In this document: positions 19,216-33,870 of the stretch, piece by piece | Numbering within the stretch: the first letter of the stretch is position 1 | Layout: each line of letters opens with the position of its first letter | Source of the DNA: Bacteroidota bacterium | Lineage (GTDB): Bacteria; Bacteroidota; Bacteroidia; UKL13-3 | NCBI GenBank assembly: GCA_010027395.1 | Contig: RGVD01000002.1 | Location: 1-33,870, forward strand | Direction of reading: 5' to 3' | Length of the DNA: 33,870 nt | Position numbers and translations under genes: made by a program | The notes under the pieces: model-generated | The model's database searches: none | Seen by the model: only the letters and a program-made list of their open reading frames with translations | What the model was told of the DNA's origin: nothing

Positions 19216-20331
19216 CTAAACATTTTCTAAATACGTATCTGGGTCTGCTGGGTCATAAGGTTCGTTTATCCAAAAAATGGTATACAATGTTTCATCGCCT
19301 ATATTCTTAATATTATGGGTGTACCAGATGGGCATATCAACATAGGCGGGTTCTTCCCCGTCTAGGTAAAAATCGCGAACTTCATCGGTTCCGATTCTGC
19401 GGAGTTGGATAAGGGCTTTTCCTTTAACTACTGCGAAGCGCTCTATCTTACGGGTATGAAAGTGATTTCCCCTAGTAATACCTGGAACGGTGGTTGAGAA
19501 AGATGTTTGTCCTGCTATGCCATGACGGGCGATTTCTACAAAAGCGCCTCGGTTATCGGTATGCTGAGTAAATTTTCGTGGAAAGTAATTCGCAATATCC
19601 ATGTAGCAACGGTAGGTATTAAACAGCTTGTGTTCGAATGAGCTGTTAATGGCTGGAAATTCTCCCTTTTCTTGATAGACATCTTTATAGTGTTGCAACA
19701 AATCCAATATTTCTGATACCTTAGCTTCGGCGGTATGCGGAATTTGAAGCTCGTGGGTGTTATCCTCCCTACGAATCGCTTTTAAAATCGCCTCCACTAG
19801 TTCACCCACATAAATCAACTTCAATAGGCCATCTACTTCAACTTTAGGTGTTTCATTGTGTGAAACTTGATGGCAAAACGTAGCCACAACAGAATTATAA
19901 TAAGGATTTCCAAAGGGGCCAAAAACATTCGGAATCACCATTCCTGTTAACTTCCCGCCTGCTCTATTAGCCCAATCTGACAGCATCAAGCGCCCTTCCA
20001 TCTTGGATTTACCGTAAAGGTTATCTCGCTCTTCCTGAGTAGAAGAAGAAATCAAGATATGTGCTTGGCTTTGGTTCCTATCAAGTGAAGCTACCAATTT
20101 CTTCACAAGACTAGTATTCGTTTCATAGATTACTTCGGAGTCGTTGTGACGGTTTAAGGCCGCCAAATGAACAATGACATGGCATTGGGATACAAAATTA
20201 TCTAACTTCGCTTCATTCTCAAAAAAAGAACGATCAAAGTCGATAAGCGTAAATTCATCTTTGAAAAGATTAAGTGTTTGATATAAATGACACCCAACAA
20301 ATCCACTTTTTATTTTAGAACGTAGATGAAT
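19216..20331 (-). CDS. fnlB: CapF/FnlB/WbjC-like bifunctional SDR + C-terminal cupin enzyme; no canonical start codon, so possibly 5'-disrupted
   Basis: The stop-to-stop open frame is 371 codons, the length I recall for this family. It reads IHLRSKIKSGFVGCHL...VIVHLAALNR...YGKSK... and ends with a cupin domain (GITRGNHFH, YTHNIKNIGDE). No ATG, GTG or TTG occurs before the TTG at 20164-20166, which the track uses. Confidence 0.7.
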   Translation of the reverse strand: MHLRSKIKSGFVGCHLYQTLNLFKDEFTLIDFDRSFFENEAKLDNFVSQCHVIVHLAALNRHNDSEVIYETNTSLVKKLVASLDRNQSQAHILISSSTQEERDNLYGKSKMEGRLMLSDWANRAGGKLTGMVIPNVFGPFGNPYYNSVVATFCHQVSHNETPKVEVDGLLKLIYVGELVEAILKAIRREDNTHELQIPHTAEAKVSEILDLLQHYKDVYQEKGEFPAINSSFEHKLFNTYRCYMDIANYFPRKFTQHTDNRGAFVEIARHGIAGQTSFSTTVPGITRGNHFHTRKIERFAVVKGKALIQLRRIGTDEVRDFYLDGEEPAYVDMPIWYTHNIKNIGDETLYTIFWINEPYDPADPDTYLENV

Positions 20332-20394
20332 CTAATCAAAAGGGTCTTGTCTACTATTAAGTGTGAATAGGTATGAAATATGCGCGCTATAGTC

Positions 20395-20781
20395 TCACCA
20401 ATTTAAGTTCTCCAAAGACTCTCTAAAATCATCACGCTTAGACTCCTCCAATCTAAAATCTGAAAAAACCATCAGTACACTTCCTTCTTCCAATGATTCA
20501 AATCCATTGTAATACCCTCCAGAAATTTCAAGAACCTTGGGTTCCAAATCTATCAGTTGATATTCCATCCTTTCAATTAAATTCATATTTATGGTCTTCA
20601 CCATAAAACTACCCTTAACCGCATAAAACCATTTGGTTTCAATCTTATGACCCTGCCATGCTCTAATGACACCGACTTTTGGTTCAATACAATACATTCG
20701 AACTACTTGAGACATATCGAAGTCGTTTACAAATCGTATTGTTCCCCGCAAGTCGGTATGGGTACTGCCGGTTATAAGCAT
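20395..20781 (-). CDS. Small stand-alone cupin protein, WxcM/FdtA-like (sugar-nucleotide ketoisomerase/epimerase-like)
   Basis: 128 aa. Motifs are TDLRGTIRF, RMYCI and IRAWQGHK.E.KWFYAVKGSF, which resemble the FdtA/WxcM cupin pattern. It lies between fnlA and fnlB. Confidence 0.6.
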   Translation of the reverse strand: MLITGSTHTDLRGTIRFVNDFDMSQVVRMYCIEPKVGVIRAWQGHKIETKWFYAVKGSFMVKTINMNLIERMEYQLIDLEPKVLEISGGYYNGFESLEEGSVLMVFSDFRLEESKRDDFRESLENLNW

Positions 20782-31046: not shown

Positions 31047-32052
31047 TTATTTTTGATTCCTATACCACCCCAAGGCCAAACCAAGTCCATCCTCAAACCG
31101 TTGTCTTGGTTGATATTTTAACTGTTCAGCAATTTTACTGATTGATGCCTTGGAGTGCCTGACATCTCCGGCTCGCTCTGGGCCATAAAAAGGCTCCAAA
31201 GATTTCCCGGTTATTTGTTGCAGGATTTGAACCATTTGATTCAGGGTGGTTTGGTCCCCACAGGCAACATTGTAAACCTCGTGCGACTTTAGCGCATAGG
31301 CGCTTGTTGGCTCCAAACCATGAAGCAAAGCCAAAACATTGGCCTGAACCGCATTTTCCACAAAGGTGAAATCCCTGCTAGTTTCCCCATCGCCATAAAT
31401 CGTAGGCTGCGTACCCTCAAGAAAGTGTTTGCAAAACAAGGGGATCACCGCTGCATACGGATTATTCGGATTTTGTTTGGGGCCAAAAACATTAAAATAA
31501 CGCACCGTAAACCCTGCTAAAAACATCGGCATACATTTCATTCACCGCCTTGGTGACCGCATAGGGGCTCAACGGCTTGCCCTCTCGTCCTTCGACTTTG
31601 GGTAGTTCTGCGCTATCCCCGTAGGTGCTGGACGAGGCGGCATAGACCATGCGATGACAGCCGACTTCGTCCCTACAGGCCACCAACATGTTCAAAAAGC
31701 CCCCAATATTCACTTCGTTCGTAGTAATGGGGTCCGCCACGCTCCTGGGCACCGAGCCCAAGGCGGCCAAATGCGCCACCAAGTCCATACCCGAAACGGC
31801 CGCCTTGCAAGTTTCCAAGTCCCGAATATCCCCCTCCACAAATTCAAAGTTGGGGATTGTTACAAATTCCTGAATATTCTCCCAATAGCCGTTGGATAAA
31901 TTATCCAAAACCCGCACCTGACCCACGCCGTACTTGAGCAAATACTCTACCAAATTAGAACCTATAAAGCCAGCGCCACCGGTCACCAATATACGGTACT
32001 TGGACAAATCAACCTTGTGATAGGGCTCCAAGTACAAATCGGGATTGAACAT
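31047..32052 (-). pseudogene. TviC/WbpP-like NAD-dependent UDP-HexNAc(A) 4-epimerase, split by a frameshift with an apparent internal deletion
   Basis: Track ORFs 31492..32142 ([14 protein letters not shown]...[25 protein letters not shown]) and 31047..31541 (...[23 protein letters not shown]...GDGETSRDF...) are the two halves of one extended SDR. The frames switch at nt 31503. The likely start is the ATG at 32050-32052. Confidence 0.8.
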
Positions 32053-32080
32053 CAAATCAAATATTTTTTTTACGAATTTT

Positions 32081-33388
32081 TTATAAGCGCCAATCCGAAG
32101 CCCCTTTGGGTAGCAAGCCTTTGACATCATAAACCAAGCCATGAGGCGTCAGGACCCTAAGGTCCAGGTTTTCAAATTCGCGGTGAGCCACCGCCAAAAC
32201 CACCGCGTCGTAGGTCCCTTGTGGTAAGGCTGAATGCACCACCAAGCCTTTGTATTCGTGGGCCACCTCCTCGGATTGAACCCAAGGGTCGTGAGTAATG
32301 ACCTGCATCCCGTAGGATTCAAGCTCCTGTACAATATCGATAACCCGGGTATTGCGGACATCGGGGCAGTTTTCCTTGAACGTAAAGCCCAGAACCAAAC
32401 AGCGAGAATCCTTGACCCCCAGGCCCGCCTTGAGCATCCCCTTCACCAATTCTTCGGCCACATAGGCCCCCATGCTATCGTTCAAGCGGCGCCCAGCCAA
32501 GATAATCTCCGGGTGATACCCCACTTCCTGAGCCTTTTGGGCCAGGTAGTACGGGTCCACCCCGATGCAATGACCCCCCACCAAGCCAGGTTTGAATTTT
32601 AGAAAATTCCATTTGGTCCCGGCTGCCTCCAAAACCTCCTGGGTATCAATCCCCATGCGATTAAAGATTTTGGAGAGCTCGTTCACAAAAGCAATGTTGA
32701 TATCCCTCTGCGAATTTTCAATCACTTTGGCCGCCTCAGCTACCCGTATGGAGGAGGCTCGATGCGTACCAGCCACAATCACCGAACGGTACAAGGCATC
32801 CACAAAATCCGCCACCTCCGGGGTGGATCCGCTGGTCACCTTAAGGATTTTGGTTACTGTATGTTCCTTGTCGCCGGGGTTAATCCTTTCCGGGGAATAC
32901 CCGCAAAAAAAATCCTTGTTATAACGCAATCCCGATGCCTGCTCCAGGACCGGAACCATTTCCTCCTCGGTAACCCCAGGATAAACCGTAGATTCGTAAA
33001 TCACCACATCTCCTTGCTTCAGGACGGCTCCTATACTTTGGCTCGCCTTAATCATTGGCGTCAGAACCGGACGATTATGGCGGTCCGTAGGGGTAGGCAC
33101 TGTAACAATGTACACGTTGCAATCGTTCAGGTCATGGGGGTTTGTGGTGCACAAGAGACCGGTGGCCTGTGATGAACCCGGTCTGACCAGAACTTCTTCC
33201 AAGGACTTATTGTCCACCTCCAGGGTGCTATCGATGCCCTTGTGCAATTCCTCCACCCGGAATGCGTTAATATCCAAGCCGACAACCCGGTATTTCTCAG
33301 CAAAGGCCACCGCCAAAGGCAGACCCACATAGCCCAAACCTACAATCCCTATTTTTATGGATTTTGGATTAGCGAATTTTGTTTCCAT
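32081..33388 (-). CDS. UDP-sugar 6-dehydrogenase, TviB/WbpO/VipA-like (UDP-HexNAc dehydrogenase)
   Basis: Motifs are [29 protein letters not shown] and [11 protein letters not shown] (catalytic Cys). I prefer the ATG at 33386-33388 (METKF...); the track start at 33463 would overlap the kinase gene. Confidence 0.9.
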
Positions 33389-33438
33389 AAGCCATTTTTT
33401 GATAAGCCAAGGATTAGAGACTCGAAGGGTGATTTGCT

Positions 33439-33870
33439 TTAGGGAAGCAACCGCCTCCACCACGCCTTGGGTTTGCGGGGACCTTCGTCTTCGTAATAGC
33501 CGTAGCCATACCCGTAGCCGTACCCATAGCCATATCCGTACCCGTAGCCATATCCGTACCCGTAGCCATATCCATACCCGTAGCCATATCCGTAGCCATA
33601 ACCGTATCCGTAGGCGGTTTCGACTTTGTAATCATTGACCACAACGCAGGCATTCTGCATTTGGCCGTTGAGGCGCATGCCTTCCAGAATCTTGACCATT
33701 TCTTTGCGGGTATAGTTCTGCCGCATCACATAGAAATTGATATCCGAAAAGCGCATCATCTCAAAGGCATCCGCAATCAGGGTACAGGGCGGGGTATCGA
33801 TGACCACATGGTCGTAGCGTTCCTTGAGCCAATCAATCAATTCCCCAAAACGATCCGACAAGACCAATTC
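33439..33870 (-). CDS. C-terminal part of a BY-type protein tyrosine kinase (Wzc/EpsB-like); the 5' end runs off the right edge of the window
   Basis: It has a Walker-B-like YDHVVIDTPP followed by a C-terminal tyrosine cluster. The track's initial 'M' is an in-frame TTG, and the frame is open to the window edge. Confidence 0.85.
   Translation of the reverse strand, partial: ELVLSDRFGELIDWLKERYDHVVIDTPPCTLIADAFEMMRFSDINFYVMRQNYTRKEMVKILEGMRLNGQMQNACVVVNDYKVETAYGYGYGYGYGYGYGYGYGYGYGYGYGYGYGYGYGYGYGYYEDEGPRKPKAWWRRLLP
33493..33612 (-). repeat. In-frame imperfect hexanucleotide array encoding (Tyr-Gly)x19 + Tyr-Tyr
   Basis: I counted codon by codon: 38 alternating TAY/GGN codons (33499-33612) followed by TAT TAC (33493-33498). 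An exact 18-bp tandem duplication lies at 33529-33546 and 33547-33564. A third copy at 33565-33582 has one mismatch. Confidence 0.95.

Follow-up and report, generated by a model that had tools for sequence, protein, structure and literature searches.

A long and length-constrained tyrosine-glycine tail in a Wzc-type tyrosine kinase of freshwater Bacteroidota as a candidate YxY ratchet track

The best-described relative of the kinase considered here is Wzc, one of the bacterial tyrosine kinases (BY-kinases), which assembles into an octameric ring, in which the tail of one subunit sits in the active site of its neighbor (PMC9800525). Wzc function depends on how far the tail is phosphorylated and not on any particular tyrosine; once each monomer carries about four phosphotyrosines, the ring comes apart, and removal of the phosphates lets it assemble again (PMC9800525). 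Cryo-electron microscopy intermediates of the Escherichia coli K30 protein reveal that the tyrosine two residues N-terminal of the active-site tyrosine binds a tyrosine pocket, formed by A534-P536, P645-L647, E675, and S679 (PMC11986026). This pocket rejects phosphotyrosine, so phosphorylation proceeds from the C terminus toward the N terminus; the single non-YxY step (N711) leaves the tail disordered, and disassembly follows the fourth phosphotyrosine (PMC11986026). The protein from which the YxY ratchet was proposed, in 2025, has only four productive steps (PMC11986026). The number and position of tyrosine residues within the cluster at the C terminus (Y-cluster) vary across the BY-kinase family (PMC9800525; PMC4007543). 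In the literature searched, the only Bacteroidota BY-kinase found with experimental characterization is Ptk1 (PGN_1524) of Porphyromonas gingivalis, for which autophosphorylation of the cytoplasmic fragment has been demonstrated (PMC4082711). No periodic YG tail is described for Ptk1 in that paper, and its comparison with the present kinase is by description only. Here, we analyzed a 33,870-bp stretch of DNA (hereafter the window) from a Bacteroidota bacterium of the lineage UKL13-3 (assembly GCA_010027395.1, contig RGVD01000002.1), which is apparently the entire contig. At its end lies the 3' part of a predicted Wzc-type BY-kinase gene whose Y-cluster is an unbroken alternation of tyrosine and glycine over 40 residues, which we propose to be a long YxY ratchet track.

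The kinase open reading frame (ORF) is on the minus strand, with its stop codon at 33439-33441, and is cut by the contig end, so that only the last 143 residues (33442-33870, minus strand) lie inside the window. Its frame ends in ...NACVVVNDYKVETA-(YG)19-YY-EDEGPRKPKAWWRRLLP, with VVVNDYKVETA directly before the run. The alternating run occupies exactly 33493-33612 (minus strand), comprises 21 Tyr and 19 Gly, and ends 17 residues before the stop codon. Both amino acids are encoded degenerately, with 12 TAC and 9 TAT codons for tyrosine and 8 GGC, 5 GGA, 5 GGG, and 1 GGT codons for glycine. On the plus strand, 33529-33546 is identical to 33547-33564 (GCCATATCCGTACCCGTA), and 33565-33582 follows with one mismatch; these three 18-bp (three-unit) tandem copies (33529-33582, no strand assigned) appear to be the trace of block duplication or slippage. 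Tandem Repeats Finder describes the array as 6.5 copies of period 18 with 87% matches. Seven 6-nt unit types make up the array, and its longest exact period-18 stretch is 47 nt, corresponding to a 29-nt exact repeat. The first-pass annotation of this DNA had given the coordinates of the array, its (YG)19-YY composition with 21 tyrosines, its codon degeneracy, and the 18-bp duplicates, and all of these are correct to the base. The run is followed by the segment EDEGPRKPKAWWRRLLP (33442-33492, minus strand), an acidic patch and then a basic-aromatic end, in which the YYEDEGPRKPKAWW motif is kept in 10 metagenome loci. Two ORFs in other frames also cross the array, at 33357-33638 (plus strand; 93 residues, RSHTRSRTHSHIR...) and at 33414-33653 (minus strand; 79 residues, MATDMATGMDMATG...). 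They were rejected as genes and are considered repeat by-products, as all variation falls at wobble positions of the kinase frame.

The window fragment matches positions 110 to 204 of the 204-position BY-kinase profile TIGR01007 (39.9 bits, with half of the domain present) and positions 618 to 715 of the 720-position Wzc profile NF008568. A full-length ortholog of 848 residues is encoded on contig L091, whose last 300 nt before the array differ at only 2 sites from those of L001, the ENA contig that carries the window's sequence. The L091 protein covers the whole of TIGR01007 (positions 1 to 204) with 155.1 bits, above the cutoff of 108.05, and has a GNVR domain at 474-552. Its hydropathy peaks (19-residue windows) start near 29-32 and 534-536, marking two hydrophobic segments, and thus the N-terminal two-pass transmembrane activator region, which lies outside the window, is found in L091. 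The ExxRxxR oligomerization motif reads ESFRSLR at 596-602 in L091 and ESFRALR in L001. The order and spacing of the Walker motifs follow the BYKdb definition (PMC3245071), with Walker A (GEGKT) at 625-629, A' (VLIGMDLR) at 647-654, Walker B at 727-733, and the YG run at 792-831 of L091. Walker B (VVIDTPP; 33787-33807, minus strand) lies inside the window, and A and A', which fall past the contig end, were read from L091 and from L001, whose overlap with the window is identical. In the A' motif, glycine replaces the first aspartate of the canonical DxDxR. The closest solved structure to L091 is E. coli K30 Wzc (7NHR; E = 2e-49), and HMMER aligns the start of the YG run with the Wzc tail ...SSYYRYGHNHYGYSY. 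The C-terminal Y-cluster of BY-kinases is thus represented here by 21 tyrosines in a 40-residue run, and these profile and structure alignments agree with the first-pass annotation, which had already named the segment as a BY-kinase Y-cluster. A match of the run to PF11759 (high-Gly/Tyr keratin-associated protein) reached 18.1 bits, below the gathering threshold of 21.1, and was rejected as compositional only. Taken together, the window segment is predicted to be the autophosphorylation tail of a Wzc-type (P-type, PCP-2a) BY-kinase, a putative co-polymerase and regulator of a Wzx/Wzy-dependent polysaccharide pathway in an uncultured freshwater bacterium.

The likeness to K30 Wzc extends to the fused transmembrane and kinase regions, the ExxRxxR and Walker motifs, the alignable tyrosine tail, a neighboring wza gene, and a Wzx/Wzy locus. 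In a pairwise alignment to 7NHR, the pocket residue E675 corresponds to a Glu codon at 33700-33702 (minus strand). However, the K30 tail, with 7 Tyr over some 14 residues, breaks the YxY pattern once (N711), whereas that of the window has 21 Tyr unbroken over 40 residues and is followed by the acidic patch and the basic-aromatic end; the other pocket residues differ as well, the P645-L647 loop being PCT.

The array was recovered from several independent sources. Contig L001 is identical to the window across 4.6 kb, including the array, except for one 17-nt indel outside it. Among the metagenome and metatranscriptome runs with Logan contigs (labeled X), a 1,936-nt contig of run X1 spans 33300-33718 with zero differences, and one of 135 nt from run X11 agrees exactly with 33472-33606. 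JGI metagenome contigs were scanned with a degenerate pattern for the post-run peptide YYEDEGPRKPKAWW, a pattern that is blind to array length, and ten loci were found in six assemblies. Nine of these have complete arrays, (YG)19YY in seven and (YG)20YY in two, with a different DNA sequence in each and pure YG alternation in all. Exact matches to 33527-33573 and 33544-33760 come from metatranscriptome contigs of run X10 and agree with transcription of the array. A search for PacBio runs with the locus returned none; the 24 runs listed are all represented by Logan contigs.

Twelve arrays were compared (the window, L002, L004, L082, L083, and L085 to L091), all of which differ in DNA. All twelve haplotypes encode pure YG alternation and differ synonymously only. 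Relative to the window, the arrays carry no fewer than 61 synonymous nucleotide differences and 0 non-synonymous ones, whereas the flanking 85 codons show 70 synonymous and 25 non-synonymous codon differences in six comparisons (Fisher p = 1.7e-6). In addition, all 17 polymorphic array positions across 16 metagenome runs are synonymous wobble sites of the kinase frame. Ser, Ala, Asn, Asp, Lys, and Arg are mutationally accessible at run positions, as relatives show. It could be objected that unit shuffling keeps the YG alternation by itself. This is answered by the high synonymous diversity within the arrays, each of which holds 5 to 8 unit types; because this diversity persists within each array, homogenization would be too slow to purge neutral missense variants. 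As the array differences are all synonymous, the peptide is the target of selection, and, at the level of these haplotypes, purifying selection on composition is shown to keep the run as a pure Tyr/Gly alternation.

The DNA units slip beneath this constant peptide. L091 has flanks identical to those of the window and an array of equal total length, in which a 62-nt exact block is displaced by 12 nt; this reads as compensated slippage, two units having gone from one end while two were added at the opposite one. In run X6, a 2,457-nt Logan contig differs from the window by two wobble changes and a 12-nt deletion at 33548, leaving 17 units. The higher-order period is also not the same throughout, being 18 nt in the window and L091 and 12 nt in L002, L004, L082, and L089. 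Neighboring 6-nt units are identical less often than expected (14 observed against 42.9 expected). The unit number is 19 in eight of nine close haplotypes, the ninth being the X6 strain; farther out, it is 20 in two lineages with 87 to 91% flank identity, 17 at 84%, and 11 at 63%, and the window lineage as a whole ranges only from 17 to 20. Arrays of 17 to 20 units are common to lineages with 9 to 16% DNA divergence in the kinase flanks, and the array is therefore old and not recently expanded. Tail length of about 19 to 20 units looks constrained despite DNA unit slippage and is not hypervariable in these haplotypes. The first-pass annotation had suggested selection on the peptide, recent slippage and expansion, and a tail length that may vary between strains. 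The first is borne out by the twelve haplotypes and 17 polymorphic sites, without one non-synonymous change. Slippage is real, as the L091 shift and the X6 deletion indicate, but the arrays predate the lineage split, and the constant length of the close haplotypes goes against strain variability.

A DNA-level survey of 71 complete kinase genes from species-representative genomes puts this tail in context. The longest YG run has a median of 14 residues (quartiles, 10 to 17), and 13 of the 71 kinases reach at least 20. The maximum, 36 residues, is that of the closest relative, L002, and the window lineage, with 40 to 42 residues, has the longest found. Other long runs occur in L023 (29 residues), L010 (27), L081 (26), Salibacter halophilus KCTC 52047 (23), and Mesonia phycicola DSM 21425 (20). 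The last two share with the window an uninterrupted run, acidic residues, and a basic end; Flavobacteriales-type (YG)n kinases differ in having about half the units, and many relatives are interrupted by Asn, Ser, Ala, Asp, or Thr. By this count, (YG)n tails with 8 to 20 Tyr are the normal design in the clade, of which the window lineage is the extreme member. The benchmark of 4 to 7 tyrosines against which the tail had first been set fits Wzc and CapB and fails in this clade, in which unbroken YG runs of 14 to 29 residues are ordinary; the survey of relatives that had been suggested, once run on DNA, leaves the window tail as the longest found and makes long YG tails less rare. A further 595-bp contig, L092 (P0001), encodes a kinase C terminus with the same YYEDEGPRKPKAWW end and a short interrupted tail, SGYSYGYGYY. 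It was considered as a short-tailed sister lineage and rejected, because the Walker A/A' region is missing and stop codons lie upstream; the contig carries either a decayed gene or a chimera of the assembly and was not used.

Protein collections give a different picture. Three protein-database searches returned 378 relatives, none with an uninterrupted YG run of more than 12 residues. The uniqueness of the 40-residue run that this suggested was rejected, the long-run kinases being missing from the collections. In an exact look-up, six kinases with runs of at least 19 residues (the L001 product, L091, L002, L007, and those of two RefSeq isolate genomes) were not in the protein collection, while a short-run control kinase and the product of the window's neighboring gene were present; the start codons of five of the six were inferred, so this evidence of absence is strong and not absolute. 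The protein collections searched thus appear to omit kinases with long YG runs, and protein-level surveys would wrongly report such tails as absent. No description of periodic YG tails in BY-kinases was found in the literature searched, including a search for 'YGYGYG' with 'tyrosine kinase'. The tail design is common in Bacteroidota BY-kinases but apparently undescribed.

The YxY geometry of the K30 ratchet, a tyrosine at i-2 of each acceptor, is found throughout the run, in 19 consecutive Y-G-Y steps and a terminal Y-Y-Y, so that the cluster at 33493-33612 can be read as 20 overlapping YxY steps. On the model of K30 Wzc, the tail would act as 20 consecutive ratchet steps, each Tyr being preceded by a Tyr at i-2. 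The tail of one subunit would lie in the active site of its neighbor with the i-2 tyrosine in the pocket, and phosphorylation would proceed from the C-terminal end toward the kinase domain until the ring opens, once the tail has been reeled in or charged past a threshold. A 40-residue track would provide many more ATP-consuming steps per cycle than the four of K30 Wzc, and more steps would mean a longer, lineage-fixed dwell time of the polymerization-competent octamer. Any interruption of the alternation would stall the ratchet, which would account for the purity of the run, and a defined number of steps would account for its length constraint. We put the probability at about 0.6 that the segment is the Y-cluster of a Wzc-type BY-kinase and, jointly with this, that it is a long track for the ratchet, multiplying the steps of autophosphorylation in each cycle, with length as an evolved timer parameter and not a strain-to-strain switch. 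A stronger version may also be entertained but is tentative and rather doubtful. Here, the (YG)19-20 tail would be a 20-step stoichiometric counter that must be traversed before ring disassembly, stabilizing selection would keep step number and glycine spacing because they set the dwell time of polymerization and, with it, chain length, and the Bacteroidota series of 3 to 20 units would be a chain-length dial; before its release by phosphorylation, the far end of the track may be anchored at the membrane by the basic-aromatic end.

Several observations weigh against the ratchet track. Only one named pocket position is clearly conserved in the alignment to 7NHR, as S679 corresponds to Ile, A534-P536 to S-I-S, and P645-L647 to P-C-T. 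Among 71 relatives, an acidic residue at the E675 position is uncorrelated with run length (p = 0.38). Relatives tolerate Ser, Ala, Asn, Asp, Lys, or Arg at x, and YxY alone needs no glycine, so the strict Gly invariance in the window lineage is not required by it. About four phosphotyrosines suffice in Wzc, and a pure charge threshold would need no 21 sites. Finally, no phosphatase domain (of the Wzb-type LMW-PTP or PHP type) was found among the window ORFs or in up to 6 kb upstream in related loci; the cognate phosphatase gene may be elsewhere in the genome. The loop that follows DTPP (33781-33786) and is aligned with part of the tyrosine pocket (P645-L647) has the residues CT in L002, L091, and the window and VT in L004, and in most relatives it is Val, Ile, Leu, or Met followed by Gly (three have IA and one has VV). 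Of the four longest YG runs in the table of 72 kinases, three belong to the lineages with CT or VT in this loop; this association of the CT loop with long runs is phylogenetically a single event and is a lead only.

Other explanations of the array concern, in part, the DNA itself. Contigs often end near it (the window, L083, L087, L088, and L090), and Logan unitigs are broken up across it in many runs, as would be seen if it were a collapsed or chimeric repeat made by assembly. That reading is effectively refuted, and an artifact is excluded: the identical array is present in the independent ENA contig and in a Logan contig that spans it without a difference, and the nine further complete arrays from six assemblies keep the alternation with different DNA. 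With a Logan assembly word size taken as 31 nt, the exact repeat in the window, at 29 nt, is shorter. About 400 nt upstream of the array lies a strain-level mosaic junction, at which the contig breaks fall and which explains them. Another reading, raised in the first-pass annotation, is that of a repeat that expanded recently, is prone to slip, and varies in length among cells or strains, so that it would work as a variable rheostat; such a repeat would amount to a contingency locus. The exact 18-bp duplicate with its one-mismatch third copy, the closely related strain whose array, 12 nt shorter, has 17 units, and the two-unit register shift in L091 would fit such a repeat, and phase-variable simple-sequence repeats are likewise tandem coding repeats with unit slippage. 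Nevertheless, the array is degenerate at the DNA level with adjacent identical units depleted, its 6-nt units stay in frame and are incapable of frameshift switching, and its peptide is conserved. Contingency loci are near-perfect repeats whose copy number differs widely between close strains; here, eight close haplotypes from several assemblies all have 19 units, lineages 9 to 16% diverged have 17 or 20, and arrays this long predate the split of the lineages. A variable contingency repeat is contradicted by these length data and seems very unlikely.

Two further explanations accept a conserved peptide but give it another role. The run could be mainly a low-complexity 'sticker', clustering kinase rings or gelling the cytoplasmic face by aromatic stacking, with phosphorylation dissolving the assembly and no stepwise counter. 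Its composition is like that of [G/S]Y[G/S] low-complexity domains, a resemblance to which the subthreshold PF11759 match also speaks, and a BY-kinase review raises pi-stacking and a gel-like phase of Y-clusters as an idea (PMC9800525). The invariant glycine and strict purity would even fit a materials-type constraint better than the bare need for YxY. However, in both its place and its alignment the run corresponds to the tail that serves as catalytic substrate in Wzc, and relatives function with interrupted and much shorter runs, so this role is judged unlikely. Alternatively, the run could be chiefly a flexible spacer of set length that places the basic-aromatic end (KAWWRRLLP) on the membrane or a neighboring subunit, with few tyrosines as acceptors. 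The conserved unit number would agree with this, and BY-kinases share the MinD/ParA fold. After the cluster, most of the C-termini examined (L002 to L081) have an acidic patch and then a basic amphipathic segment, for example, LLKRIKKAFKS or PFWKRILKG, and these segments resemble the MinD-type membrane-targeting helix. In relatives, the basic amphipathic C-termini are significant against shuffles at p <= 0.05 in 24 of 66 cases (the sequences are phylogenetically related, which inflates any combined p), and their median hydrophobic moment is 0.70, compared with 0.48 for the E. coli MinD membrane-targeting helix scored alike. Yet linkers normally accept substitution, while in the run no residue departs from Tyr or Gly; taken alone, the terminal segment of the window does not reach significance (p = 0.17), and the long-run relatives L023, L032, and L043 end directly after the acidic patch, without a basic segment. 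A role chiefly as a spacer is thus quite unlikely, and the ratchet track is retained as the preferred explanation of the tail.

The genes around the kinase are those of a polysaccharide locus. A wza-type gene (Poly_export and SLBB domains) abuts the kinase start in L086, L091, and L002. The next gene downstream in the window (32081-33388, minus strand), the first of the biosynthesis region, encodes a TviB-like UDP-N-acetyl-hexosamine dehydrogenase (NF011729, E = 7e-163, and three UDPG_MGDP_dh Pfam domains), and exactly the same protein is also encoded on contig L001. It is followed by a WbpP-like epimerase, a MatE-type flippase, a Wzy_C protein, and about seven GT4 glycosyltransferases. In addition, the window encodes FnlA/FnlC-like enzymes, an AsnB-like amidotransferase, ATP-grasp proteins, a Bac_transf initiating transferase, a DegT aminotransferase, and a PglF-like dehydratase. 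By gene content, this is a classical Wzx/Wzy-dependent polysaccharide locus, with the kinase between wza, as seen in related contigs, and the Wzx/Wzy genes. The WbpP/TviC-like NAD-dependent epimerase (31047-32142) is split into two overlapping ORFs by a 17-nt deletion at 31504/31505 relative to L001, in which the gene is intact (370 residues, reading ...VYGMHTIGLRYFNVFG...), as it is in L091 (366 residues); the split is either a real frameshift pseudogene in the metagenome-assembled genome (MAG) or an assembly error. An FnlB-like ORF (19219-20166) matches the epimerase model only from position 81, and a 128-residue ORF with no family match (20398-20781) precedes it across a 230-nt gap, so that 19219-20781 may be a second disrupted gene.

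The relatives of this sequence are freshwater Bacteroidota MAGs, among them a 'Sphingobacteriia' MAG from Lake Lanier (95% identity) and one from a pond (86%), and the metagenome runs in which the sequence occurs come from lakes and fresh water. Among the window, L085, L086, and L091, about 400 nt before the array are about 99 to 100% identical, and identity falls to about 80% further upstream. Downstream of the kinase, L091 is 95% identical to the window, and L085 and L086 are unrelated to it. The GC content in 1-kb windows is 28 to 43% between 6 and 31 kb and 49 to 55% at both ends of the window. The mosaic pattern is consistent with the biosynthesis region being exchanged by recombination, the kinase 3' end acting as a putative anchor, and the junction is in keeping with the border usually seen where conserved export genes meet variable, low-GC biosynthesis genes.

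These tails bear on how phosphorylation cycles of Wzc are turned into polysaccharide chain length. Across Bacteroidota, kinases with YxY tracks of perfect periodicity and of a few to 20 units make up a series supplied by nature, and in the window lineage the purity and length of the longest track are apparently held by selection although the DNA slips. They offer a ready-made comparative and mutational test of whether step number sets the timer.

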